The translations under genes were made by a program, and so were the position numbers. This document shows, piece by piece, positions 14,352-63,495 of a DNA stretch of 64,000 bases. Where the stretch lies: assembly GCA_045121515.1 (NCBI GenBank), contig JBGVGD010000021.1:21955-85954 (forward strand), read 5' to 3'. The DNA is from Phocaeicola sp. (GTDB lineage: Bacteria > Bacteroidota > Bacteroidia > Bacteroidales > Bacteroidaceae). The notes beneath the pieces are model-generated. The model worked only from the letters and a program-made list of their open reading frames with translations. It was not told the DNA's origin and ran no database searches. Positions within the stretch are counted from its first letter, which is position 1. Every line of letters starts with the position of its first letter.

Positions 14352-15500
14352 TTATCTATTGTTCTTGAATTCTTTGATTGCTTGGTTTACATCCATTTTC
14401 TTGCCATTCTTGAAAGCAATGATGAATGCTCCCTTGAATTTGGTTTCAATCTGGCGTTTGGTCCGTAATACTTTGTTGTAGTCGGTGCTTTCGCCATAAG
14501 TATACTTGTATATACCTTTTTCTTGATAATGACTTACAGGGGAAAGTCCCTTGAACTGTTTATGGTTTGCTGATAATTTTTTGTCAGATGTCAATATCTG
14601 AATCTTGAATATCGGCTTATCGCTAGTAACCGTTTGCTTCTTAGGGGCAGCCGAAGGCTTTTTATCCGCTTGGGAAATAACTTTAGGTTTTGTCGGAGAC
14701 TCATTTCTTCTGGCAATAGGGGAGCCGTTCTGTTCCTTGTATTTCATGAAAGCACGATAGATGCTTTGTGCTAAAGCATCGGTTCCGGCTTCGGATAGCA
14801 AATATCTTTCTTCGTCCGGTGTGGAGATATAGCCCAATTCTACCAATACCCCTGGCATGGTTGTTTCCCGGAGAACGAGAAATCCGGCCTGATGTACTCC
14901 TTTATCGATACGTTTGGCTGTATTCTTGAATTGACGTTGGATTTGTGTGGCCAATTGGACACTCTTTTCCATATTTTTGTCTTGCAAGAATTCAAAGATA
15001 ATATAACTTTCAGAAGAATTCGGGTTAAAGCCAGCGTATCGTTGTTCGTAGTCGTTCTCGATCAAGATTACGGCATTTTCTTTTTTAGCAACCTCCAAAT
15101 TGTCTTCTGTACGGTGAAGCCCTAATGTGTAAGTCTCAGTTCCACGTACGGTTCTTCCGCGTGCAACGGAATTGGTATGGATGGAAATGAACAAGTCGGC
15201 TTTAGCGTTGTTTGCAATTTGGGCACGTCTGTCCAGTCCTACGAAAGTGTCTTTGTCTCGGGTATAGACGATACTTACATCATTGCAATTACTTTGGATA
15301 AGTTTACCTAGTTTCAAGGCAACGTTCAGATTGATGTTCTTTTCTTTGCCTCGCTTGCCGATGGCACCAGGGTCACGACCACCATGACCAGGGTCAATAA
15401 CTACTATAAAATTCCTGTTTCCCGCTTGTGCTCTGACAAAGGGAAGTACCGACCAAAGGGTACACAAGAGAATTATTATGTAACTTCTGTTCATTATCAT
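14352..15500 (-). CDS. N-acetylmuramoyl-L-alanine amidase (Amidase_3)
   Basis: VIDPGHGGRDPG, FISIHTN and VLVELGY motifs; signal peptide. Confidence 0.93.
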   Translation of the reverse strand: MIMNRSYIIILLCTLWSVLPFVRAQAGNRNFIVVIDPGHGGRDPGAIGKRGKEKNINLNVALKLGKLIQSNCNDVSIVYTRDKDTFVGLDRRAQIANNAKADLFISIHTNSVARGRTVRGTETYTLGLHRTEDNLEVAKKENAVILIENDYEQRYAGFNPNSSESYIIFEFLQDKNMEKSVQLATQIQRQFKNTAKRIDKGVHQAGFLVLRETTMPGVLVELGYISTPDEERYLLSEAGTDALAQSIYRAFMKYKEQNGSPIARRNESPTKPKVISQADKKPSAAPKKQTVTSDKPIFKIQILTSDKKLSANHKQFKGLSPVSHYQEKGIYKYTYGESTDYNKVLRTKRQIETKFKGAFIIAFKNGKKMDVNQAIKEFKNNR

Positions 15501-15717
15501 ATTTATAAGGTGCAAAGTTAGCCATTTTTAATGAAAATAGGGCAGATGTTCTGAAGTTTTCCGGATTTAAGACGAAAATGATGTGAAAACCCGAAAAATA
15601 GAAAAGTGCAAATACTTTGATGTCTGATGCAAAATACCGAAACGTTAGAGAAATCTGAATCTTTGTGATTTTGTTTGAAGATTATTTCGTATTATTGCAA
15701 AAAATAAACGATTGAAG

Positions 15718-16254
15718 ATGGATGCACTTGCTATCATTGATAAATATTATCCTGAGGATAATGAGTTAAAACGGATTTTAGTTACGCATAGCCGATCGGT
15801 AGCCGATAAGGCGCTTTGGATTGCTGATATTCATCCGGAGTTGGAACTTGACAAACAATTTTTGGAAGAAGCGGCTTTGTTGCATGATATCGGTGTTTTT
15901 CTGACTGATGCACCGGGTATTCATTGTTATGGAACACATCCTTATATCTGTCATGGATACTTAGGATCACAATTGTTGCAGCAAGAAGGTTTTTTGCGCC
16001 ATGCTTTGGTATGTGAACGACATACGGGAGCCGGAATGTCCTTGCAAAGTATTCTTGAACAAAATTTACCCGTCCCACATCGTGAAATGGTACCGGTATC
16101 GTTGGAAGAACAAGTCATCTGTTTTGCAGACAAATTCTTTTCCAAGACCCGTCTTGATAGTGAAAAGACTATCGAGAAGGCGCTCAAAAGTATATCTAAA
16201 TATGGAGAAGATGGGGTAATCCGTTTCAATAATTGGTGTGAACGCTTCTTGTAA
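15718..16254 (+). CDS. HD-domain phosphohydrolase
   Basis: HSRSV, ALLHDIG and FADKFFSK motifs. Confidence 0.85.
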   Translation: MDALAIIDKYYPEDNELKRILVTHSRSVADKALWIADIHPELELDKQFLEEAALLHDIGVFLTDAPGIHCYGTHPYICHGYLGSQLLQQEGFLRHALVCERHTGAGMSLQSILEQNLPVPHREMVPVSLEEQVICFADKFFSKTRLDSEKTIEKALKSISKYGEDGVIRFNNWCERFL

Positions 16255-16344
16255 GCCTTAAAAATACATTAAAATTCAAGTAAATCCTTTATAATTGGCG
16301 GATAATGCTTAATTTTGCCCTCTTGAAGTGAAAGAAAAGAACGA

Positions 16345-19083
16345 ATGACGCAAAACAAACTACATAGAATTATCCCTTTTTTACTGTTGGCTGTTGCCCT
16401 GATGCTTAGTGTGGAGTCGGGAGCCCAGCGGGCGCGTAATCGTCGTCGGGGTATAAATGATACGGTCCGAGTGGATTCACTTGGAGCGGATACCCTTGCA
16501 GTGGATTCAGTGGGAGCAAAAAAGAAGGAGCCGCTGGATGCTCCGGTGGTGTATGAAGCCAATGACTCTATTGTGTTCATGGATGGTTTGGTACATTTGT
16601 ATGGCCAAAGTAAGGTGAATTACGAGAAGATTGAATTGACTTCAGAAATCATTACCATGAATATGGACAGTAGTACGGTTTTTGCACGTGGTATTGTCGA
16701 TAGTACAGGAGTGGAAACAGGCTTGCCGGTCTTTAAGGATAGCGATACGCCTTATGAATCGAAGGAGATGCGCTATAACTTCAAGAGTAAGAAAGGTTTC
16801 ATCAACCAGATCGTTACTCAACAAGGGGAAGGGTATGTGATAAGTAAGGAAGCAAAGAAAGGTGCAAACGATGAAATTTATATGAGGTCTGGCCAATATA
16901 CCACTTGCGACCATGAACATCCTCATTTCTATTTGAAACTTTCTATGGCCAAGGTACGTCCAAAGAAAAACGCAGTTTTTGGTCCTGCTCAATTGGTGGT
17001 GGAAGATGTTCCGCTTCCTATTGCTGTTCCGTTTGGTTTCTTCCCGTTTAACAGTAGTTATTCATCCGGCTTCATTATGCCGACTTTCGGTGATGAAATG
17101 AACCGTGGTTTTTATTTGCGTGACGGGGGGTATTATTTCGCTATCAATGATAATATGGACTTGAAGGTATTGGGCGAAATCTTTACCAAAGGTTCATGGG
17201 GACTTTCTACTCAATCCAATTATGCAAAGCGTTATAAATATAGCGGTTCGTTCAATGCCAGTTATTTGGTGACTAAGACAGGGGAGAAGAACATGCCGGA
17301 CTATATGGTAACGAAGGACTTGAAGTTTGCTTGGAGTCATCGACAGGATCCGAAGGCTAGTCCGAACAGTACTTTTTCTGCGAATGTGAATTTTGCAACC
17401 AGTAGTTATGACCGCCGAAACTTAAGCAGTTTGTACAATCCGGAGCAATATTCCAATAATACGAAGGCGTCTAGTGTGAGTTATTCCCGTACATTCCCTT
17501 CTATCGGTTTGAATTTGTCAAGTACGTTCAATATCACACAAAATACACGTGACTCTTCTATCAGTGTGACTTTGCCGGATTTGAATATCTCTTTGAATCG
17601 TATTTATCCGTTCAAACGTAAGAAATCGGCAGGAGAAGAACGATGGTATGAAAAGATTTCTTTCCAATATACCGGTCGAATGACAAATTCGATTACGACC
17701 AAGGACAATTTGCTTTTGAAGCAAGGTTTGAGTAATTGGAACAATGGTATGCAACATACTATCCCGGTAAGTGCTACATTTACTTTATTCAAATACTTCA
17801 ATGTGGTTCCTTCATTCAATTATACAGAACGTTGGTATACCCGCAAGGTGCTTCAAAGTTATGACCCGACTGTAGCTGGAAGTATACGTAAGGATACAAT
17901 CAATGGCTTCAACCGTTTGTATAATTACAATATGAGTCTGCAGGTGAATTCTAAGTTGTATGGTTTCTTTAAGCCATGGAAGGTGTTTGGCGATAAAGTT
18001 CAGATGATTCGTCACGTCTTTACTCCGTCTGTCAGCTTTAGTTATGCTCCGGACTTTGGTCAATCTCGTTATGGCTATTACGATACTTATACTTATACAG
18101 ATGAAAAGGGTGAAGTTCGTACAGTGGAATATTCTCCTTATCAAGGTATGGCATTTGGGGTACCAGGTAAGGGTATGCAGAAGTCATTCAACTTTGCTAT
18201 CGACAATAATGTAGAAATGAAGATCAAGTCGGATAGTGATACGACAGGTGTGAAGAAGATTAGTCTGATTGACCAATTATCGGCCAATATGTCTTATAAT
18301 GCGGCAGCGCAAACACGTCCTTGGAGTGATTTGAGCATGAACTTGCGTTTGAAGTTGACCAAGAGTTATACCTTTAATATGAATGCATCGTTTGCAACGT
18401 ATGCTTATCAGTATGACGATCGTGGCAATATTGTTGTGGGTGATCGGACTGAATGGTCGTATGGCCGTTTCGGACGTTTCCAAGGATATAGCGGTTCTTT
18501 CTCCTATACCTTTAATAATGACACTTGGAAAAAGTGGTTTGGCTCAAAGGATGAAGAAGAAAACAATAAGGGAAACAAGAATGATGATAAAGAAGGGGAA
18601 TATGATGATGAATATTTGAGTGAGGAGGAACAGGCTGAATTGAAAAAGAAGCAATCACAACCCCGTAAGAAGGAAAAAGCAAATATTAGCGAAGATGGCT
18701 ATATGGCATTCAAGATGCCTTGGTCGTTGAGTTTGAGCTATAGTTATAGTATCCGTGAGGATAGGAATAAGGAGAAGTTCAATCGTAAGACCATGCGTTA
18801 TCCGTATGCATTGACCCATTCGTTGAATGCGAGTGGTAATGTCAAGTTGGGTAGCCGTTGGAATATAAACTATTCATCGGGTTATGACTTTACTCAGAAG
18901 AAGATGTCCATGACAACCGTGAATATTACACGTGACTTGCATTGCTTTACCATGAGTTGTGGTTTGGTGTTTGGTCCGTTTACTTCTTATAACTTTAGTA
19001 TCCGTGCTCTTTCAAGCATGTTGACGGATGCATTGAAGTGGGATCAGCGAAGTAATACAGGTAGTGCAGTTACTTGGTACTAA
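16345..19083 (+). CDS. lptD: Putative LPS-assembly outer-membrane protein LptD
   Basis: Signal peptide, YTTCDHEHPHFY motif, long beta-barrel region, RDLHCF near the C-terminus. Confidence 0.85.
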   Translation: MTQNKLHRIIPFLLLAVALMLSVESGAQRARNRRRGINDTVRVDSLGADTLAVDSVGAKKKEPLDAPVVYEANDSIVFMDGLVHLYGQSKVNYEKIELTSEIITMNMDSSTVFARGIVDSTGVETGLPVFKDSDTPYESKEMRYNFKSKKGFINQIVTQQGEGYVISKEAKKGANDEIYMRSGQYTTCDHEHPHFYLKLSMAKVRPKKNAVFGPAQLVVEDVPLPIAVPFGFFPFNSSYSSGFIMPTFGDEMNRGFYLRDGGYYFAINDNMDLKVLGEIFTKGSWGLSTQSNYAKRYKYSGSFNASYLVTKTGEKNMPDYMVTKDLKFAWSHRQDPKASPNSTFSANVNFATSSYDRRNLSSLYNPEQYSNNTKASSVSYSRTFPSIGLNLSSTFNITQNTRDSSISVTLPDLNISLNRIYPFKRKKSAGEERWYEKISFQYTGRMTNSITTKDNLLLKQGLSNWNNGMQHTIPVSATFTLFKYFNVVPSFNYTERWYTRKVLQSYDPTVAGSIRKDTINGFNRLYNYNMSLQVNSKLYGFFKPWKVFGDKVQMIRHVFTPSVSFSYAPDFGQSRYGYYDTYTYTDEKGEVRTVEYSPYQGMAFGVPGKGMQKSFNFAIDNNVEMKIKSDSDTTGVKKISLIDQLSANMSYNAAAQTRPWSDLSMNLRLKLTKSYTFNMNASFATYAYQYDDRGNIVVGDRTEWSYGRFGRFQGYSGSFSYTFNNDTWKKWFGSKDEEENNKGNKNDDKEGEYDDEYLSEEEQAELKKKQSQPRKKEKANISEDGYMAFKMPWSLSLSYSYSIREDRNKEKFNRKTMRYPYALTHSLNASGNVKLGSRWNINYSSGYDFTQKKMSMTTVNITRDLHCFTMSCGLVFGPFTSYNFSIRALSSMLTDALKWDQRSNTGSAVTWY

Positions 19084-26675: not shown

Positions 26676-28811
26676 TTAGAAGTACAAGTAACGGTCATCC
26701 TTTACGTTAGCCTTTTCATACAAGTCATTGATGAAGCTGCTAGCGAAACGAGCTGACATAGTAGCCAAAGTAGTTTCTTCGTTCTTAGCGTTGAATTCTT
26801 CAGCGTTGTTTTCCTTGTTGATTACTTGCATAACATATACTGCTGCATTACCCTTAACCGGAGCAGTAGCCTTGTTCAATTCGCTCTTGCTTGCGATAGC
26901 ACCCAAAACAGGTTCGCTGGCACGAGTTACACCTACATAAGTAGGAGCACCGAATGTGATGTGCTTGATAGTGTCGCTTACTGCATTAGCCATACCCTTT
27001 ACTTGTTCAAGGCTAGCACCATTCATTTGAGCCAAGATCTTTTCAGCCTTCTTGTCGCGGAGGATTTCCATTCTCAACATATCAGCAACAGTGTTGATGT
27101 TGCGGTAACCTACCGGGTTGATCTTTTCCAAAGCAACTACCATCATGTGGTCGTTTTCGCCACATTCGTACAATGGAGAAACTTCACCTTCGTTAGCTTC
27201 GAAAATCCACTTCAATGCTTCGCGAGTGTTCTTAACACCACCTACATAGTGTTCGTTGTTACGGAAGTCAGCACGTTCCAACAAACGGTAACCGCTTTCT
27301 TCTGCGTTTTCAACCAACTTGTCCAATGTAGTGTTCTGAGCAACGAACTGGCTGAAGTCGTTGTATGCCTTGTTATAAGTTTCCTTGCTGAATTCTACCG
27401 GACGCTTGATAACAGCAATCTGATACTTATCCTTGATAGCCTTCTTGTCCAATACTTGAAGGATTACATTTACTTGACCCAATTCAAGGTTTACGAATTC
27501 TTTCTTGTTACCATTGATCAAAGCCTTGATGTACTTAGCGTTGTCTGCATCGAGAGCAGCACCTTCATAGCTAGGAGCAGTCAACCAAGTGCTTTCACCA
27601 GTCTGGCCATAAACCTGAGCAATTTCTGCAAAGTCAGCACCACCCGTCAAAGCTGTATAGATACTGTCTGCCAAAGTCTTTGTCTTTTCAGCAGTTTCTG
27701 CGTAAACTTGGATTTGACGGAATTGAACAGAGTCAGCAAGAGCTTCCTTCTTCAATACTTGCATTGCGTTGTAAGAATCGTCAGCAGCATTGTAATAAGG
27801 ACCGTAAACTTCGCCTACCTTTACAGAGTCGATGCGTGTAGCGATATCGCTTGGATATACAGCCTTGTTGATAGCTACTTCAGTAAATGGAATAACTGAA
27901 CCTGTAGAACGGATGAAAGCAGCCATTTCTGTTGCATCCTTCAACTGGTTAGCATATTCAGTAACTTCGTTCAACAATTCTGCGCGGTCTGCTTCAGATG
28001 GAGTTACCAATACATCGATGTACTTGATGTTACGAGTTTCCATCAATTGCTTGTATGCTTCCTTCTTTTGGTTGTAAAGCGCCTTGATTTCTTCGTTGCT
28101 AACAGTGATAGTAGTATCGTTTACTGAAGAATATGGGATAGCAGCCAACAAAACATCTGCTTGTTGTGTGCGGCTTGCGAAAGCGTCTTCTGCAGAAACT
28201 GGATTAGAAATCAATGATTTTGCAATCAAGCTTTGGTACTTTTCAGCCAACAATGACTGCTTCAATGTCTTTTCGATGAAGTTCCAGAAAGCACCCATCT
28301 GCTGATAGTATTCTACATACTGAGCAGGAAGTTGGTTGGCAGTAGAACCCAAGTTAGAGTATTCTACCAAGAACTTCTTCAACATGTCCTTATCGAAAGC
28401 ACCCGTTTGTGGATTACGGAACGGAGTCTGCATCAACAATGGGTGAACACCCTGTTCGATTACATCCTGAATTTCAGCATCGCTAACCTTCAACCCCAAC
28501 TTTTCAGCTTCAGTTTCAATCAACTTATTGTTGATGTATGATTGCCATACTTGATCCTTAACTTGTGTAAGTTGGTCATCGTTCAAAGCAGATGTACCTT
28601 GAGTCATCTTGATGACTTCTGTGTATTCATCTACCAATGCCTGATAATCTTGAGCAGAGATTGTTTCTCCGTTTACTTCTCCAATGTCTTGGCGGCCCTG
28701 ATGCGGTTGGATAGCTTTCCAAGCGTCACCTGCAACGAATGCAAAAAGAGCAAGACCAATGACGGCGACCAAAAGTGGTCCTCTGTTTCTGATTTTTTGT
28801 AATGTTGCCAT
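26676..28811 (-). CDS. PpiD-like membrane-anchored SurA/parvulin chaperone
   Basis: MATLQKIR plus TM, SurA-N-like region, rotamase motif (GADFAEIAQVY). Confidence 0.85.
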   Translation of the reverse strand: MATLQKIRNRGPLLVAVIGLALFAFVAGDAWKAIQPHQGRQDIGEVNGETISAQDYQALVDEYTEVIKMTQGTSALNDDQLTQVKDQVWQSYINNKLIETEAEKLGLKVSDAEIQDVIEQGVHPLLMQTPFRNPQTGAFDKDMLKKFLVEYSNLGSTANQLPAQYVEYYQQMGAFWNFIEKTLKQSLLAEKYQSLIAKSLISNPVSAEDAFASRTQQADVLLAAIPYSSVNDTTITVSNEEIKALYNQKKEAYKQLMETRNIKYIDVLVTPSEADRAELLNEVTEYANQLKDATEMAAFIRSTGSVIPFTEVAINKAVYPSDIATRIDSVKVGEVYGPYYNAADDSYNAMQVLKKEALADSVQFRQIQVYAETAEKTKTLADSIYTALTGGADFAEIAQVYGQTGESTWLTAPSYEGAALDADNAKYIKALINGNKKEFVNLELGQVNVILQVLDKKAIKDKYQIAVIKRPVEFSKETYNKAYNDFSQFVAQNTTLDKLVENAEESGYRLLERADFRNNEHYVGGVKNTREALKWIFEANEGEVSPLYECGENDHMMVVALEKINPVGYRNINTVADMLRMEILRDKKAEKILAQMNGASLEQVKGMANAVSDTIKHITFGAPTYVGVTRASEPVLGAIASKSELNKATAPVKGNAAVYVMQVINKENNAEEFNAKNEETTLATMSARFASSFINDLYEKANVKDDRYLYF

Positions 28812-28916
28812 TTAATTTATTGTTTTTTTGTTTATTGTTTTCTATACGTTTGCATTTTAGCGCACAAAAATACAAAAAATGAAATTGATAATCTATTTTA
28901 TTTTGAAAAAAAATAG

Positions 28917-30176
28917 TTATTCATTCACTTTTAGTTTGACCAATTCTATTTTTGTTGCTGTAACTTTGAGAATACGGAACTGAAAGTTTCCCAACGTTAT
29001 AATTTCATGAGCCTTTGGGAAACTTTGATATTCATGTAGTATAAGTCCTCCGATAGTTTGGTATTCATCGCTTTCCGGCAATTCCAAAGAGAACATTTCA
29101 TTGGCCTTTTCAATGTCCAGACGACCGGAAAGTACATATTCGTTGTTGCCTACCTCTTTTGCCACGTAGGATGTAGTATCGTGTTCGTCTTCGATTTCGC
29201 CAAAGATTTGTTCCACCAAATCCTCCAATGCAACGATACCAGAAGTACCACCGAATTCGTCCACGACTACCGCCAATGATTTTTTCTGTTGCATGAAAAT
29301 CTTCATGAGCTTGTTGGCGTTCATGGTTTCCGGTACAATCGGAAGTTGTCGGATGCATTGTTGCCAGTTCTCTGGTTCCCGGAACAGTTCCGATGAGTGG
29401 ATGTATCCGGTAATGTTGTCAATATTATCTTGGTAAACGATGATTTTACTGATACCCTTTTCAACGAAAAGCTCCATCAATTCTTCCATTGAGGCATCGT
29501 CTTCAATGGCAATGATTTCAGTTCTAGGAACCATACAGTCACGTATCTTGATGCTGGAAAAGTCCAAAGCATTCTGGAAAATCTTGACTTCGGTGTTAAT
29601 TTCTTCTTCGTTGGAAGAGTTCTCTATACTGCTTTGGATAAAATGGTCCAAATCCACTTTCGTGAATGCCTTTTCACTGGCTTCTTTGTTGATTTTAGTT
29701 CCAGTCAGGAGCAATAGAATACCGGATATGCCGGAAGCGAATTTGCTGATAGGGTAGAGCACTATGTAGCAAATGAATGTAGGGAGAGCAAATAAACTTA
29801 AAGTAAAGTTTGGGTTAATCTTGAACAGTGTTTTAGGAAGGAACTCTCCAGTAACTAAAATAATTAAGGTAGATATGATGGTTTGAGTAAGCACGAGCAG
29901 GAACTCATTGGTAATATATCCGGCCAATAAGTTCTGTTCGATTAATTCGGCCATTAAGATACCATAAATGACCAATGCGATGTTGTTTCCTACCAACATG
30001 GTAGAAATGAAGTTGTTGGGGTTATGATAAAAAATGGATAGGATACGGGACGTGATGCTTTGTTCGTTCCTGTCCATTTCAAAGCGTAGCTTGTTGGATG
30101 AAACAAAGGCTATTTCCATGCCGGAAAAATAGGCGGAAAAAGCCATTGTTATAAGGATCTGTATGATAATCTCCAT
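28917..30176 (-). CDS. CNNM/HlyC-CorC family transporter (DUF21, CBS pair, CorC)
   Basis: FSGMEIAF, GEFLPK and VVVDEFGGTSGIVALEDLVEQIFGEIEDEHD motifs. Confidence 0.92.
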   Translation of the reverse strand: MEIIIQILITMAFSAYFSGMEIAFVSSNKLRFEMDRNEQSITSRILSIFYHNPNNFISTMLVGNNIALVIYGILMAELIEQNLLAGYITNEFLLVLTQTIISTLIILVTGEFLPKTLFKINPNFTLSLFALPTFICYIVLYPISKFASGISGILLLLTGTKINKEASEKAFTKVDLDHFIQSSIENSSNEEEINTEVKIFQNALDFSSIKIRDCMVPRTEIIAIEDDASMEELMELFVEKGISKIIVYQDNIDNITGYIHSSELFREPENWQQCIRQLPIVPETMNANKLMKIFMQQKKSLAVVVDEFGGTSGIVALEDLVEQIFGEIEDEHDTTSYVAKEVGNNEYVLSGRLDIEKANEMFSLELPESDEYQTIGGLILHEYQSFPKAHEIITLGNFQFRILKVTATKIELVKLKVNE

Positions 30177-30191
30177 AATCTCTTAGAGTTT

Positions 30192-30836
30192 TTATCTATT
30201 TGTGACGCTGATATTCAAGCTGTCTTGAGGCTGGGTTGTAACTGTAGGTGCTGTATCTTCAATGGTAAATATACCTGTTGTGTTTTTAATTTCATATTCA
30301 CTTAAGTCCTGGTTGGATTCAAATCCATATCCTTTAATGACTTTATCCTCTTGTTCTATCTGAATGAATTTGTCGGAATATACCTTTTCCTTCTTTTCAT
30401 CCCAAAAGAGCAGGTCTGTCTGGAATCTGTCACCACGTTGGCTGAGAATCTGTACATGACCTCTCAGTTCCCATAATTTCTTCTTTTCGTGATAGTAGGC
30501 TGTATCTGCTTTGATGCTGGCATCGACACGGAATAGAGTATCGAATTTTTCGAGGTAAACCCCTTTTTCAAAAGCCCAATAGGGAGGGTTCTTCTTGTCG
30601 TGGATTAACCATTCTTCAGCTACAATTTTGTAGCGAGTGATACCTGAGTCGGAAATCAACGTTGTTACTCCTAATGATTTCATGCTAGGTAGTGTATCAT
30701 TTTCTGAAATGGCTTCTGCCAATTTCTTGTCTTTTCCGGAGCATGCCGGAAATAAAACAAACATAACAGCTGCAAGGAATGCAGCTGTTATGTTTAGAGT
30801 TTTCAGATATGTTTGATTCTTCTGTTTCAATGACAT
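30192..30836 (-). CDS. lptC: LPS export ABC transporter periplasmic protein LptC
   Basis: Lipobox PA-C; QTDLLFWD...VYSDKFIQI...GYGFESNQ. Confidence 0.8.
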   Translation of the reverse strand: MSLKQKNQTYLKTLNITAAFLAAVMFVLFPACSGKDKKLAEAISENDTLPSMKSLGVTTLISDSGITRYKIVAEEWLIHDKKNPPYWAFEKGVYLEKFDTLFRVDASIKADTAYYHEKKKLWELRGHVQILSQRGDRFQTDLLFWDEKKEKVYSDKFIQIEQEDKVIKGYGFESNQDLSEYEIKNTTGIFTIEDTAPTVTTQPQDSLNISVTNR

Positions 30837-30839
30837 GTC

Positions 30840-32192
30840 TTATCTGATAGTAGTGGTTTCACCAATCCATCCACCGATAGTTACGGCATCACCCTTCTTC
30901 AAACCGATGAAGAACAAGTCTTCGTCCTTCGGAGTGTAACCAGCATATGTTCTGATGAGCTTGTCAGCTTCTTCAGCACAGCTTGGGTCAACGCTCTTTG
31001 CCTTTTGCAACTTGTCGATTACAGCGAAGAATACACACTTGTTCAATGCAGCTTCGTCGCTCCACTTCGGGCTAGATGCATACATTTGAGCAATCAAGAT
31101 GTATGGCTTACCGTTTTCACCGTTCAATTCGATAGACTTGCGAGCATATTGCTTAGCCTTGCTCAATTGCTTGTTTGCGAACAAAACAGCAGCAGCTGAG
31201 TACAAATAGTCTGCCTTCTTGGCAGGATCTTGTTCCAATTCGATTGCGTTGTCGAAGTAAGTGATACACTTGTCGAAGTCACCCTTCTTGTAGTACATGT
31301 AACCGCAACCGATAGCAGTTTCAGCAGTAGGTTCGATAGCGTGAGCGTATTCAGATGCAGCGAAGTAAGCTTCAGATTCTGTACAACCCAACATCTTCAT
31401 CACCTTAACCACTTGCTTCAAGTATTCCAAGTCGTTCTTGCTAGCTTCTACCTTAGGAGCATAGATTGCCTGCAAGTTGTCGCAAGTTGCAACACCACTG
31501 TTGATGAAGTGAGCGTCGATGTTTTCCTTAGCTACTTGGTAGTTCTTCTTTGCACTTTCCTTCTTGGCAGCATTCAATGCTTCGTTAGCGTAGCCTGAAG
31601 CAGCGATGTAGTCCTGAACGAACTGTTCCTTGTGTGCTTCGTCTGCCTTTACCTTGCGTGCAGATGTTTCAACGAATTCCATCAAAACATAGTAAGGCAA
31701 GTTGCTCTTTTCAGCAGCTACCGCTTCAGCAAACATAGCGTAAGCTTCGTTATTGTCCTGACCGCCATTGCTGAAATAGTCATGAGCCTTAGTACCCATG
31801 ATGTCACCCTTAGTAGCCTTTGTCTTAGAAAGGGTATTCAACTGATCCAAGTATTGGATACGTTGGTCGTGAACTTTCATCAACAAATTGAAGTATTCCT
31901 TTTGCTTAGCACCGTCTTTTTCTGTAGCGATGAGAGCACGAAGAATCTTGGCACCATTAGTGTAAGTTGCGATTTGAGCCCAAGGAGCTTCATCAAATAC
32001 TGCCTTCCATGAAGGATAAGCATCCTTGAAGTTGTTAGTCTTCACATACTCAGTATAAACACTGATGTTCTTCAAGCAGTTCAAACTGTCTTGACCATGA
32101 CCGAATCTTGATCCGTCTTCTACTCCTTTTTGAGCGAAAACTGCTGTAGCGCTTAATGAAAGAGCAAACAGCATTGTTACCATCTTTTTCAT
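30840..32192 (-). CDS. Exported TPR-repeat protein
   Basis: Signal peptide, several TPR-like helices, conserved Bacteroidetes C-terminus IGGWIGETTTIR. Confidence 0.75.
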   Translation of the reverse strand: MKKMVTMLFALSLSATAVFAQKGVEDGSRFGHGQDSLNCLKNISVYTEYVKTNNFKDAYPSWKAVFDEAPWAQIATYTNGAKILRALIATEKDGAKQKEYFNLLMKVHDQRIQYLDQLNTLSKTKATKGDIMGTKAHDYFSNGGQDNNEAYAMFAEAVAAEKSNLPYYVLMEFVETSARKVKADEAHKEQFVQDYIAASGYANEALNAAKKESAKKNYQVAKENIDAHFINSGVATCDNLQAIYAPKVEASKNDLEYLKQVVKVMKMLGCTESEAYFAASEYAHAIEPTAETAIGCGYMYYKKGDFDKCITYFDNAIELEQDPAKKADYLYSAAAVLFANKQLSKAKQYARKSIELNGENGKPYILIAQMYASSPKWSDEAALNKCVFFAVIDKLQKAKSVDPSCAEEADKLIRTYAGYTPKDEDLFFIGLKKGDAVTIGGWIGETTTIR

Positions 32193-59868: not shown

Positions 59869-61668
59869 TTACTTCTTACCTTCCAACTGTTGCTTCAAAG
59901 CAGCCAAAGCGTCGATGTCGCCCAAAGTAGTAGAAGCTGCCTGATTCTGGATCATTGGAGTTTCTTCCTGCTGTTGCTTCTTAGCTTTTCTTTCCTTAGC
60001 AGCTGCCTTCTTTTCTGCCTTTTCTTCTGCCTTAGCAGCATCTTCGAAAATACGGCTGTGAGAAAGGATGATGCGCTTAGCGTCCTTGTTGAATTCGATT
60101 ACCTTGAATTCCAACTTTTCTTCCATCTGAGCTTGCTTGCCATCTTCCTTTACCAAGTGCTTAGGAGTAGCGAAACCTTCAACACCGTAAGGCAATGCAA
60201 CTACAGCACCCTTATCCAACATTTCGATGATAGTACCTTCGTGTACAGAACCTACTGTAAATACAGTTTCGAATACATCCCATGGATTTTCTTCCAACTG
60301 CTTGTGACCGAGGCTCAAACGACGGTTTTCCTTGTCGATTTCAAGAACTTGAACTTCGATGTCAGCGCCAATCTGAGTGAATTCTGATGGGTGCTTGATC
60401 TTCTTTGTCCAAGACAAGTCAGAGATGTGGATCAAACCATCTACACCTTCTTCGATTTCTACGAATACACCGAAGTTAGTGAAGTTGCGAACCTTTGCAG
60501 TGTGCTTAGAACCTACTGGGTACTTTTCTTCGATAGTTTCCCATGGATCTTGCTTCAATTGCTTGATACCCAAAGACATCTTACGTTCGTCGCGGTCGAG
60601 AGTCAAGATAACTGCTTCTACGTCGTCACCTACCTTCATGAAGTCCTGAGCAGAACGCAAGTGCTGTGACCAAGACATTTCAGAAACGTGGATCAAACCT
60701 TCAACACCCGGAGCGATTTCGATGAATGCACCGTAGTCAGCCATAACAACTACCTTACCAGAAACCTTGTCACCTACCTTCAAGTCTGCGTTCAAAGCAT
60801 CCCATGGGTGCGGAGTCAATTGCTTCAAGCCGAGAGCGATACGCTTCTTTTCATCATCGAAGTCAAGGATAACAACGTTCAACTTCTGATCCAATTCTAC
60901 TACTTCCTTCGGATCGCTTACACGGCCCCAAGACAAGTCTGTGATGTGGATCAAACCATCTACGCCACCCAAGTCGATGAATACACCATATGATGTAATA
61001 TTCTTAACGGTACCTTCGAGTACTTGACCCTTTTCAAGCTTACCGATAATTTCCTTCTTCTGTTGTTCCAATTCAGCTTCGATAAGAGCCTTGTGAGATA
61101 CAACAACGTTCTTGAATTCTTGGTTGATCTTAACCACCTTGAATTCCATAGTCTTGCCTACAAATACATCGTAGTCACGGATAGGCTTAACGTCGATCTG
61201 AGAACCCGGCAAGAATGCTTCGATACCGAATACGTCTACGATCATACCACCCTTAGTGCGGCACTTAACGTAACCCTTAATGATTTCTTCGTTTTCAAGA
61301 GCAGCGTTTACGCGATCCCAAGAGCGAGTAGCACGTGCCTTCTTGTGAGAGAGGATCAACTGACCCTTCTTGTCTTCCTGATTTTCGATGTATACTTCTA
61401 CTGTATCACCAATCATCAAGTCAGGATTGTAGCGCAATTCATTCAAAGGAATGATACCGTCTGATTTGTAGCCGATGTTGACAACAACTTCGCGCTTGTT
61501 CATAGAGATGACAGTACCATCTACAACCTCGCGGTCGTTTACCTTGTTCAAAGTACCGTCATAAGCCTTTTCAAGCTCTTCTTGGCTCATGCTTGTTACA
61601 GCTTCGCCCTTTTCATACGCATCCCAATTGAAATCTTCAATAGGAGCAATGTTCTTTAAGTTTTCCAT
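59869..61668 (-). CDS. rpsA: 30S ribosomal protein S1
   Basis: Tandem S1 domains (GLIHITDLSW, GLIHVSEMSW, GLIHISDLSW); tail TTLGDIDALAALK. Confidence 0.98.
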   Translation of the reverse strand: MENLKNIAPIEDFNWDAYEKGEAVTSMSQEELEKAYDGTLNKVNDREVVDGTVISMNKREVVVNIGYKSDGIIPLNELRYNPDLMIGDTVEVYIENQEDKKGQLILSHKKARATRSWDRVNAALENEEIIKGYVKCRTKGGMIVDVFGIEAFLPGSQIDVKPIRDYDVFVGKTMEFKVVKINQEFKNVVVSHKALIEAELEQQKKEIIGKLEKGQVLEGTVKNITSYGVFIDLGGVDGLIHITDLSWGRVSDPKEVVELDQKLNVVILDFDDEKKRIALGLKQLTPHPWDALNADLKVGDKVSGKVVVMADYGAFIEIAPGVEGLIHVSEMSWSQHLRSAQDFMKVGDDVEAVILTLDRDERKMSLGIKQLKQDPWETIEEKYPVGSKHTAKVRNFTNFGVFVEIEEGVDGLIHISDLSWTKKIKHPSEFTQIGADIEVQVLEIDKENRRLSLGHKQLEENPWDVFETVFTVGSVHEGTIIEMLDKGAVVALPYGVEGFATPKHLVKEDGKQAQMEEKLEFKVIEFNKDAKRIILSHSRIFEDAAKAEEKAEKKAAAKERKAKKQQQEETPMIQNQAASTTLGDIDALAALKQQLEGKK

Positions 61669-61734
61669 TAAAAAATTAGTTAATAAAATTGTTAATTGTG
61701 TTAGACTTTATATGGATAATATCTAAATCGGCCG

Positions 61735-61742
61735 CAAAGATA
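61735..61742 (-). promoter_or_regulatory. rpsA -7 promoter box
   Basis: TATCTTTG on the minus strand, followed by CGGCCG. Confidence 0.65.
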
Positions 61743-61748
61743 CGATAA

Positions 61749-61780
61749 AGTTATGAGTTATGAGTTATGAGTGATGAGTT
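61749..61780. repeat. (AGTTATG)~4.5 heptamer array
   Basis: AGTTATG AGTTATG AGTTATG AGTGATG AGTT. Confidence 0.9.
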
Positions 61781-61790
61781 TTTTTTCTAT

Positions 61791-62144
61791 TTATGGGTTC
61801 TTTTTGCTGGTTATGATGATAGAAATGATCATTTTACGGATTTCTTCGCAGTCTTCTATCATGGAATCATACTCTTTTGTAGAAATGTATTCCGTTTTGC
61901 ATAAGAGGGTTAACCAATATTGAGTCTCATTGGCTTCCTTTTGCGAAATGGATAATTTGTGAATGAAATCAGCGGTAGATTCAGCGGATAATGCTTCGCT
62001 GATATTCGCTCCAATGGAAGTTCCACATCGCAAAAGTTGTTTACTTATGATGCATTCTCTATGGTTCTCGTTTAAATATTTGTATAGGTTGACTATCCTT
62101 ACCGCATAGTTCAAAGCCTTATTGTAGACCAAACTCTCCTTCAT
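61791..62144 (-). CDS. Four-helix-bundle protein (23S rRNA intervening-sequence protein family)
   Basis: SKQLLRCGTSIGANISEA...DFIHKLSISQKEANETQYWL motif. Confidence 0.92.
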   Translation of the reverse strand: MKESLVYNKALNYAVRIVNLYKYLNENHRECIISKQLLRCGTSIGANISEALSAESTADFIHKLSISQKEANETQYWLTLLCKTEYISTKEYDSMIEDCEEIRKMIISIIITSKKNP

Positions 62145-62176
62145 AACTCATAACTCATAACTTATAACTCATAACT
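62142..62176. repeat. (CATAACT)x5 heptamer array, inverted relative to 61749-61780
   Basis: CATAACT CATAACT CATAACT TATAACT CATAACT. Confidence 0.9.
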
Positions 62177-62178
62177 CC

Positions 62179-63495
62179 TTAATAGAATTTACGGATTTCT
62201 GCCCCTTTATAATAATGTAATAGGATTTCTTCATACGAGTATCCTTTTTCTCCCATAACGGCGGCACCAATCTGGCAGAGACCGACTCCGTGTCCCCAAC
62301 CGGATCCCGAGAGAATGAAGTTTTGGGGAATACCTTCCTTGACTTCTCCCTTGTCTACCACAAAGGCGGAACTGAACAGGTGAGAATCTGAAAGGACTCG
62401 GCGGATCTCCATTTCCTTGCCGATGGTGAATGTCTTCAATGTACCCACAATCTTCAGTTTGCAGATACGGCCGGAAGGACCACGCTGGACTGGAATCAAG
62501 TCGATGATGTCTCCATAATCAGACTTTGTATTGGTGCGAATCAGTTCGGCCAGTTCTGCTTGGGTGTAACGCACCTTCCAACGATAGAAGTCAGTAGTTT
62601 CTTGGTCGTAATTGTTGAGTATCTGCGACAAGATTTTCTTGTCGTGGGTATCGCAGAACGATTTGGGAGCCTTGCGGATCCAGTGTTCGGCTTCCTCTTC
62701 CTTGGTCAAGTCCGGGAATGAGAGATTCTCTTCCTCTTCTGCATCGCGGATAGAGGTGAGATAAGGGTAATGCTTGTCTTCCCAGCAGTATTCAAACTCT
62801 TCGGTAGCACCTCCGCAACATTTGGAAAAACGGGCATCGCATATTTTCTTGCCATGCATCAACAAATGTCCGCGAGTGGCATGGACTGCTTCGGCGACGG
62901 TGGCATTGGTTGCTTTAGTGATACCTTGGTAACGCTGACAATGGTCGTCGGCACATACATCGAATATGGTATGGTCTTCGCGGTCGTACCAACGGATGTA
63001 TTCTTCTTTGGTCTTGATAAACGAGAAAAATCCTTCGTCTTTTCCTTTTAATGCTTTCCGCTTTTCCATTTGGGCGAAAAGCCAGCTGCGTGAAATTACA
63101 GCATGCGCTTTCAGCAGTTCCAAAGACGAATTGGCGTTCATCTCAGATGAAATGACGCTGATAAGGTATTCTTCGACGGGCAAAATATTGATAGCTACAA
63201 TCTTGTCTTCGTCTACCACCAACCTTAAAGTGCCGGAAAAGACTTGCGTTTCCTGACGTTCCCAATGGTAGTTGAGTCCGATAGTAACATCGTATAATGA
63301 GAAGGAGTTTTTTTCATCTTGTGGGGTGAAGGTCAGTTCCCGGTATTGGCTGTCGTTCCAAAGGATGCCTCCTTCGCTGAAGGATACCACTTGATTGCCG
63401 CTGACGGTTTCTCCTTTAGCGAAGAAATGGCCATTGAGGGTGAAGTGTATTTCTTTAGCACTGACAATCCCTACGTTTATTTCAGGTTCTTTCAT
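62179..63495 (-). CDS. SpoIID/LytB-domain protein (lytic transglycosylase-like)
   Basis: VEEYLISVISSEM, LKAHAVISRS, DDHCQRYQG and GWGHGVGLCQIGA motifs. Confidence 0.9.
   Translation of the reverse strand: MKEPEINVGIVSAKEIHFTLNGHFFAKGETVSGNQVVSFSEGGILWNDSQYRELTFTPQDEKNSFSLYDVTIGLNYHWERQETQVFSGTLRLVVDEDKIVAINILPVEEYLISVISSEMNANSSLELLKAHAVISRSWLFAQMEKRKALKGKDEGFFSFIKTKEEYIRWYDREDHTIFDVCADDHCQRYQGITKATNATVAEAVHATRGHLLMHGKKICDARFSKCCGGATEEFEYCWEDKHYPYLTSIRDAEEEENLSFPDLTKEEEAEHWIRKAPKSFCDTHDKKILSQILNNYDQETTDFYRWKVRYTQAELAELIRTNTKSDYGDIIDLIPVQRGPSGRICKLKIVGTLKTFTIGKEMEIRRVLSDSHLFSSAFVVDKGEVKEGIPQNFILSGSGWGHGVGLCQIGAAVMGEKGYSYEEILLHYYKGAEIRKFY

Follow-up and report, generated by a model that had tools for sequence, protein, structure and literature searches.

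A 64,000-nt stretch of the Phocaeicola sp. genome assembly GCA_045121515.1 (contig JBGVGD010000021.1, positions 21,955 to 85,954; the whole stretch is called the window below) carries, between the gene for a SpoIID-domain protein and rpsA, a small gene of the PF05635 family that has on either side an array of a 7-nt unit, the two arrays being inverted relative to each other. We think it likely that this arrangement is a hairpin cassette of the same type as the intervening sequences (IVS) of 23S rRNA, located between protein-coding genes rather than in 23S rRNA. The enclosed gene encodes a four-helix-bundle protein of 117 amino acids (aa), and the unit of the arrays, AGTTATG, is not private to it: AGTTATG arrays are a genome-wide family, which had been missed in an earlier note on this DNA. 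About 75 arrays of the family are gene-less, and most of them form hairpins that are packed into the gap from one gene's stop codon to the start codon of the following gene. This burst of gene-less cognate hairpins alongside an IVS-type cassette in an mRNA context is unusually clear.

The PF05635 cassette between the SpoIID gene and rpsA

The cassette and its neighbours consist of the following features:

62142-62176, minus strand: 5' arm, reading AGTTATG, AGTTATA and three times AGTTATG on the coding strand (sequence; Tandem Repeats Finder, TRF)
61791-62144, minus strand: gene for the four-helix-bundle protein, 117 aa (PF05635 23S_rRNA_IVP, TIGR02436)
61749-61780, minus strand: 3' arm, reading AACT, CATCACT and three times CATAACT on the coding strand (sequence; TRF; inverted-repeat search)
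61749-62176, minus strand: whole cassette, 428 nt, with RNA ends that are predicted to pair around the open reading frame (ORF) (RNAfold)
62179-63495, minus strand: gene for the SpoIID-domain protein, 438 aa, the upstream neighbour (ORF list; PF08486, E 2.8e-23)
61735-61742, minus strand: TATCTTTG, a match to TAnnTTTG and candidate -7 box of rpsA (regular-expression scan; published Bacteroidota consensus)
59869-61668, minus strand: rpsA, ribosomal protein S1, 599 aa, the downstream neighbour (six S1 domains, PF00575, E 1.9e-82)

On the coding strand, the TAA stop codon of the SpoIID gene is followed by GG and then by the first heptamer, which leaves a gap of 2 nt. The start codon of the 117-aa ORF is the ATG of the last unit of the 5' arm (62142-62144), and ATAGAAAAA stands between the stop codon of this ORF and the 3' arm. 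The six nucleotides TTATCG separate the 3' arm from TATCTTTG, the only match to TAnnTTTG within 61600-62500 in the regular-expression scan; since it matches the published Bacteroidota consensus, it is a putative -7 box of the rpsA promoter. The start codon of rpsA is at 61668 on the minus strand. The arms (61749-61780 and 62145-62176) were found by the inverted-repeat search as 32-nt sequences with 94% complementarity, and TRF assigned them period 7 with 4.6 copies in the 3' arm and 5.3 copies in the 5' arm. Both are the top-scoring period-7 arrays of the window, the other three rows of this period having scores of 32-34. The account that the earlier note had given of the arrays, the ORF, the ATG in the last unit and the spacing to the -7 box is correct in every detail, as judged from the sequence, the inverted-repeat search and TRF.

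The 117-aa ORF matches PF05635 with an E value of 1.1e-30 and TIGR02436 with an E value of 1.4e-32, in agreement with its earlier assignment to the four-helix-bundle family that is encoded in 23S rRNA IVS. The match to the solved Bacteroides-type protein 2RLD in the Protein Data Bank (PDB), which was deposited with five chains, has an E value of 2.7e-38, and the 117-aa protein is about as near to this structure as family members get. No rRNA or other RNA family was detected at the locus in Rfam; there were only spurious sub-threshold matches of miRNA precursors on the long hairpins. The further neighbours of the cassette are the gene for RlmN and a gene for a protein with a metallo-beta-lactamase fold.

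At the level of RNA, RNAfold predicts a minimum free energy of -118.4 kcal/mol for the cassette as compared to -80.1 +/- 5.9 kcal/mol for shuffled sequences (z -6.5). In the predicted fold, the ends of the cassette pair as a 23-bp helix with extensions that enclose the ORF, and the AUG at positions 42-44 of the cassette RNA falls within this helix. The complementarity of the arms and the predicted fold are thus in line with the earlier proposal of a duplex of about 30 bp that loops out the whole gene and sequesters its start codon. No TAnnTTTG box is present in the approximately 320 nt that were scanned upstream of the 117-aa gene; taken together with the 2-nt gap, this suggests that the gene is probably co-transcribed with the SpoIID gene.

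Filled, empty and remnant sites, and variation among strains

We compared 80 loci with genes for SpoIID relatives and found rpsA downstream in five of them. The distance to rpsA is 136-175 nt in four of these five loci, whereas L079 has about 3.5 kb of other DNA in between. Three loci (L003, L004 and L006) encode SpoIID proteins that are 94, 87 and 86% identical, respectively, to that of the window; their gap to rpsA of 136-141 nt contains no cassette and carries an ordinary hairpin, AAATTCCTGAAA..TTTCAGGAATTT. From GTATCTTTG onward to rpsA, their sequence is the same as in the window, and the cassette stands in place of about 55 nt of the empty-site sequence. Judging from these alignments, the cassette is an insert that replaced the ordinary hairpin present after the SpoIID gene of the nearest relatives. 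Locus L005 has neither the gene nor the 5' arm, while it shares the AAAAAAAACTCAT junction and has four units of the CATAACT type. About 45 nt of this locus can be weakly aligned with the 3' end of the ORF of the window and are a probable 3' remnant of it; we therefore read L005 as a decayed cassette. The empty-site alleles that the earlier note had proposed to look for in relatives do exist, with three sites empty and one retaining a putative remnant.

The exact 117-aa protein is recorded in 51 blocks of the sequence collection, and 23 contigs were read. In all ten places listed, the identical protein is encoded downstream of the SpoIID gene, and rpsA is next wherever the contig is long enough. 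The DNA of the ORF differs by 1-3 nt among metagenome contigs encoding the identical protein, these differences being synonymous by construction of the look-up. The 5' arm has three, five or eight units in different strains, with shuffled ATG/ATA variants, and the 3' arm is of constant length in all 11 strain sequences, with a single C/A polymorphism. Thus, the arrays gain and lose whole units among strains. Moreover, short-read contigs of the SpoIID gene end at the array, indicating that the heptamer repeats break assemblies.

A different role for the arrays is conceivable: they might be cis-regulatory sites for translation or mRNA stability to which a host protein for single-stranded RNA, such as S1, Csp or CsrA, binds, a role that has been proposed for TAACTGA repeats, and the adjacency to rpsA would then reflect autoregulation. 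The downstream gene does encode S1, and at many loci of this genome C/A-rich arrays stop 0-13 nt 5' of start codons, as do the TAACTGA repeats of other bacteria (PMC4679880). However, the array on the promoter side lies upstream of the -7 box, so that it could be part of the rpsA transcript only by read-through. Its length is constant among the strains, only the SpoIID-side arm being variable, and the closest relatives keep the same -7 box and an identical rpsA leader without any array. Finally, this explanation accounts neither for the enclosed gene nor for the inverted pairing, and we regard it as improbable. In view of the same observations, the suggestion of the earlier note that array length might tune rpsA is not supported. 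Overall, the interpretation given in that note is partly supported.

AGTTATG arrays throughout the genome

The genome (3.05 Mb, 42.8% GC, 98% complete) contains 77 arrays of at least three AGTTNNN units, as compared to none in a block-shuffled genome. It has 48 arrays of period 7, as compared to 0-4 for each of the periods 5, 6 and 8-11, and the AGTTATG unit family accounts for 44 of these 48. These numbers exclude a chance origin. A rough ORF map places 67 of the 77 between genes. About 20 pairs of arrays are hairpins in which (AGTTATG)n on the 5' side leads into a brief palindromic tip, for instance GCCATCCGGATGG, and then into (CATAACT)n on the 3' side, five units being the commonest array length. 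The first unit of the hairpin overlaps or abuts the upstream stop codon, and the last one stops 0-13 nt short of the next ATG. The sole gene-bearing copy of these elements is the one that encodes the four-helix-bundle protein.

On contig C64, two blocks of heptamer hairpins and their flanks (15216-18872 and 27689-31345) mirror each other across about 8.8 kb, with reverse-complementary flanks at 18838-18872 and 27689-27723. Possible explanations are a large duplication in inverted orientation or an invertible segment with heptamer elements at its borders. Two unusually long solo arrays of 10 and 9 AGTTATG units (C22:13999-14068 and C35:83811-83873, respectively) abut CAT, the reverse-strand ATG, and thus directly precede start codons of genes on the minus strand; changes in their length could switch expression.

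The window also has a tandem repeat at 1255-1340 that is unrelated to the heptamers: 3.7 copies of the 23-nt unit TTCCACATAATGTGGAAAGAACG, each with the palindrome TTCCACATAATGTGGAA inside.

Distribution of the arrays among congeners

We found 88 matches of the AGTTATG unit in this genome, 48 in the congener G018 and two in G008, whereas the remaining 21 congeners of the sample had none; the unit family is thus lineage-specific and patchy within the genus. One of the gene-less hairpins (C37:7904-8040, 137 nt) is located between two co-directional genes. The corresponding junction reads TAA-ATTCGT-ATG in G065 and measures 11 and 17 nt in two further congeners, and G018 carries an orthologous hairpin. 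By this comparison, the C37 hairpin appears to be an insert into what is a spacer of 6-17 nt in three congeners.

A presence/absence matrix of 20 sites in seven genomes revealed that many of the surveyed junctions are short spacers in G065, G008 and G017. Since four of the seven 'filled' calls that were checked turned out to be ordinary hairpins or another palindromic element, we claim only a mosaic pattern and no four-gamete proof of repeated gain and loss. At two sites orthologous to AGTTATG hairpins, other species have hairpins of the unit ATTTATG with different loops (G017:C1:25265-25385 and G074:C64:21875-21985; loci L311 and L312), and a two-unit CATAACT remnant stands alone at one of these sites in G065 (C102:1065-1155; L316). 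Either these tiny spacers are hit repeatedly, or the arrays are overwritten in place.

At junctions that are filled with heptamers in this genome, G069 has a palindromic element of about 120-150 nt (C184:17290-17455 and C128:4420-4555; L314 and L315) of the form GTCATTCAGAG..CGAAGAATCTCGG..CCGAGATT..TGAATGAC, which looks like another family of the genus that resembles MITEs (miniature inverted-repeat transposable elements).

Flanking arrays in the PF05635 family

The only other PF05635 gene of the genome (120 aa, C79:92624-93043; locus L002, ~1431-1855) is flanked by inverted (ATTAAAA)n/(TTTTAAT)n arrays, and here, too, the start codon adjoins the array. The unit ATTAAAA forms four arrays in the whole genome, two of them elsewhere than at this gene.

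A first survey covered 80 loci of relatives with 49-72% identity; they belong to Bacteroidota, Bacillota, Cyanobacteria, Ignavibacteria and other groups. In 54 of 78 homologues, the upstream flank shared with the downstream one an inverted repeat that scored above the 95th percentile of permuted pairs, and 52 of 54 flank arrays detected in a strict tandem scan of these loci had period 7. With a looser criterion, a period-7 array was present in at least one flank of 54 of 75 family genes (72%, a figure obtained with close relatives) as compared to 18 of 150 neighbouring genes (12%; p ~2e-19). Arrays of this period were present in both flanks of 30 of 75 family genes and of one of 150 other genes (p ~1e-15). 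Other members of the family thus carry arrays of the kind that the earlier note had proposed to look for.

The units vary by locus (AGTTATG, ATTTATG, AATTGAT, AATGCAG, AGTTAAT, AGTGAGG and others), and 50 of 61 units from 5' arms share an A-R-T-K core, the chance rate being roughly estimated as ~18%. For pairs of loci that are not syntenic, protein identity and unit distance are correlated with a rho of -0.23, and none of 500 permutations was as extreme. The unit differs by at most one base in about 70% of the pairs with at least 65% protein identity as compared to 5% of those with 45-55%. Even the proteins of a cyanobacterium (L131, Prochloron) and a member of the Bacteroidota (L150, Bernardetia) are 78% identical and have the units AGTTACC and AGTTATC, respectively. 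By this co-variation of protein and unit without shared flanks, gene and arms are passed on jointly, by inheritance as well as by transfer, and the unit sequence accompanies the gene across bacteria.

For a second survey, we used the sequence of Xcc0516 from the PDB alignment as the query, a protein that forms a pentameric ring of four-helix bundles (cited in PMC4990558). Flank arrays were found at 42 of its 80 loci, which belong to Proteobacteria, Acidobacteriota, Planctomycetota and others, and 46 of 58 arrays in this clade had period 7. The two surveys together comprise about 155 homologues from many phyla. The Xcc0516 orthologues of Xanthomonas arboricola, X. hortorum and X. vasicola interrupt the operon for acetyl-CoA carboxylase exactly between the accB stop codon and the accC ATG (L218-L220, L222; ~1400-1860), and degenerate GGGAATC arrays upstream and arrays of the GATTCCC type downstream span the distance from the one to the other. 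At the Bernardetia locus L150, TAACTGA arrays adjoin the PF05635 gene.

Some family members deviate from the heptameric pattern: periods of 8, 9 and 10 occur around L239, L268, L288 and L166. At L131, a Prochloron metagenome-assembled genome (MAG), the four-helix-bundle ORF has an in-frame stop codon; the array in front of it (upstream of position 2998, 120 nt) consists of 15 copies of the 8-nt unit TTAGCAGT, and the downstream array has period 7.

Presence of the gene in genomes rich in arrays

Among 41 related genomes, the PF05635 gene is present in 14 of the 16 that are rich in A-R-T-K heptamer arrays as compared to 11 of the 25 others (Fisher p 0.008; rho 0.46). The unit is specific to the genome, being AATGGAT in G026 and AATGAAG in G016, for instance. 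The unit of the resident gene matches the dispersed unit of the genome in the genome studied here (G000), in G012, G016 and the cultured B. oleiciplenus YIT 12058 (L088), as well as in Xanthomonas and Bernardetia. In G021 and G078, it does not match the dispersed unit.

It is tempting to speculate that PF05635 proteins and tandem heptamer arrays constitute a single genetic system in bacteria: the protein, as a pentamer, would recognise the 7-nt unit that belongs to it, that is, the conserved A-R-T-K core plus three variable bases in arrays of typically four to five units, and gene-less hairpins would spread into transcribed junctions and become homogenised because the protein drives or licenses this. 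We put this idea forward as a tentative one that is more probably wrong than right.

Several of our observations weigh against the reading that we propose. The tips of the gene-less hairpins, which resemble GCCATCCGGATGG, have no counterpart in the cassette, and these hairpins are thus not simple deletion derivatives of it. The cassette swaps out about 55 nt instead of simply adding to the site, with no sign of classical transposition, and no target-site duplication is visible at the cassette junction as compared to the empty sites or at the C37 hairpin. When 16 gene-less hairpins were folded in sense and antisense orientation, the split was 10 versus 6 (p 0.13), which is no significant bias toward pairing at the RNA level. 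The proportion of family genes with flanking arrays given above reflects the choice of close relatives and the loose criterion. Finally, no PF05635 gene above the cut-off was found in seven congeners, which are mostly incomplete MAGs and several of which are rich in hairpins; hairpins thus persist in genomes that lack the gene, and they may spread there as well. A gene of 350 nt between two repeats is likely to be lost from short-read MAGs, and this may explain part of the seven gene-less congeners, which are thus weak evidence.

These points raise the question whether the gene is a mere passenger. A host family of hairpins, of the repetitive extragenic palindromic (REP) or terminator kind, might spread alone, and the four-helix-bundle gene would have entered, or been captured by, a pre-existing loop, the arms belonging to the genome rather than to the gene. 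Only one of about 40 AGTTATG-type elements (77 arrays) bears a gene, congeners have hairpins and no detectable PF05635 gene, and the conserved hairpin tips are unrelated to the interior of the cassette. Moreover, the same intergenic sites hold ordinary hairpins, another palindromic element or heptamer hairpins of other units in different species. On the other hand, the unit follows the protein sequence across non-syntenic loci and phyla, as seen for L131 and L150. The two PF05635 genes of one and the same genome have different units, of which ATTAAAA with its four arrays is nearly private to its gene. In addition, the rRNA element of Coxiella bears heptamers although rRNA helices are no heptamer hairpins. 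We consider it rather unlikely that the gene is only a passenger.

Comparison with known elements

ORF-bearing IVS of 23S rRNA are known from Leptospira and from Coxiella burnetii, in which the S23p element occupies helix 45 (Warrier et al. 2016, PMC4990558; Ralph and McClelland 1993). The Coxiella IVS encodes S23p and has three to four tandem GACAGAT heptamers just 5' of the ATG, within a terminal stem of 28 bp; the number of heptamers is strain-variable, and RNase III cleaves the element in vitro where the first repeat begins (PMC4990558). The cassette resembles this element in the protein family, in the stem of about 28-30 bp formed by terminal inverted repeats around the ORF, in the heptamers that abut the start codon and vary in copy number by strain, and in having no transposase. 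With the ORF, the inverted heptamers and the start codon in the stem all as in Coxiella (PMC4990558), the IVS-like architecture recognised in the earlier note is well founded. A further likeness is that 23S rRNA IVS have long been proposed to be selfish or once-mobile elements. In contrast to these IVS, which reside in helix 9, 25 or 45, the cassette occupies the gap between the SpoIID stop codon and the rpsA promoter. Unlike in Coxiella, both of its arms are clean heptamer arrays, and their unit is dispersed in the genome as about 75 gene-less arrays. Excision by RNase III has been demonstrated for the Coxiella IVS, whereas for the cassette we infer it.

Known dispersed heptamers include GGGGA(T/C)T of Nostoc and GGGAATC of Xanthomonas, the latter at ~186 sites, of which 70 are inverted pairs (Rehm et al. 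2015, PMC4692102). In Beggiatoaceae, cyanobacteria and five Bacteroidetes, among them Flexibacter (now Bernardetia) litoralis, TAACTGA repeats end just 5' of start codons (MacGregor 2015, PMC4679880). Together with the short tandemly repeated repetitive (STRR) sequences of cyanobacteria, these repeats share with the arrays studied here that they are intergenic tandem heptamers near start codons, often in convergent inverted pairs, and that they are lineage-specific and of variable copy number. What sets our observations apart is that in this genome, in Xanthomonas and at the Bernardetia locus L150 a PF05635 gene is flanked by the genome's own dispersed unit. The terms S23, four-helix and intervening sequence are absent from both papers (PMC4692102 and PMC4679880), and our literature search, which did not extend to the STRR literature, found no paper that links the PF05635 family to dispersed heptamers or describes such a cassette in operons. 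PF05635 genes wedged inside cas operons have been reported (PMC3936711).

As the earlier note had stated, the family is related to Avd, the accessory protein of diversity-generating retroelements (DGRs), and this homology is in print (PMC10053308). Avd (PDB 4DWL) is a homologous four-helix bundle that forms pentamers and binds nucleic acid and reverse transcriptase in its elements. Since PF05635 is the Pfam family that Avd resembles (PMC10053308), the 117-aa gene might itself encode Avd, with the repeats as parts of a DGR. Yet its neighbours are the genes for SpoIID, S1, RlmN and the protein with the metallo-beta-lactamase fold, and in contrast to Avd systems there is neither a reverse transcriptase nor a pair of template and variable repeats near the cassette. 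The gene neighbourhood thus contradicts a DGR, and we attach next to no probability to it.

The Correia/NEMIS elements of Neisseria and the REP/REPIN elements with their REP-associated tyrosine transposases (RAYT) are short palindromic elements between co-transcribed genes, and their hairpins are potential RNase III sites. Like the AGTTATG family, they comprise many non-autonomous copies and at most one or two that bear a gene. Unlike in these families, the AGTTATG elements have arms made of 7-nt units in tandem instead of unique terminal repeats, and there is neither a RAYT or other transposase nor a target duplication. Furthermore, the only gene associated with the AGTTATG elements encodes a 117-aa helical bundle without known catalytic activity, which distinguishes them from RAYT systems. 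A RAYT or a partner of the IS200 type (PF01797) was not found in the 98%-complete genome, in which control searches were positive, and we have therefore rejected membership in the REP/REPIN-RAYT family. Given that the cassette contains no transposase either, the claim of the earlier note that the element does without one is sustained. MITEs derived from insertion sequences were also rejected because there is no target-site duplication and the only gene-bearing copy encodes a four-helix-bundle protein.

A proposed mode of action

What we infer for RNase III processing, self-regulation, any role of the protein and the mode of spread is as follows. In a transcript that comprises the SpoIID gene and the cassette, the two arrays would pair, and the resulting duplex of about 30 bp would conceal the AUG of the 117-aa ORF. 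By analogy to the rRNA element of Coxiella, this duplex may be a substrate of RNase III, the gene of which is present in the genome, and the cut would release the SpoIID message from the RNA of the cassette. The stem of the cassette might substitute for the displaced 3' hairpin of the SpoIID gene, and this would explain why an insertion next to an essential gene is tolerated. Array length may change by replication slippage. As to the spread of cassettes and gene-less hairpins to new sites, our preferred guess is recombination or conversion between dispersed arrays in combination with some kind of insertion step.

Implications

The locus ties the PF05635 gene family to the unexplained 7-base repeats of bacteria, a link that is made neither in the GGGAATC paper nor in the TAACTGA paper. 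A single genome shows the gene, its arms and a burst of cognate gene-less arrays between cistrons, and in addition there are filled, empty and remnant alleles and arrays that vary among strains. For work with genomes, the consequence is that hairpins at operon junctions break short-read assemblies and probably make the gene drop out of MAGs. Three puzzles that have long been separate meet here: the purpose and movement of the rRNA IVS and their conserved ORF, the over-representation of heptamers, and the role of the common genes annotated as 'four helix bundle protein'. If the proposed bacteria-wide system is real, the 23S rRNA IVS, the STRR, TAACTGA and GGGAATC repeats and the excess of heptameric repeats would all be products of one kind of transposase-less mobile element.

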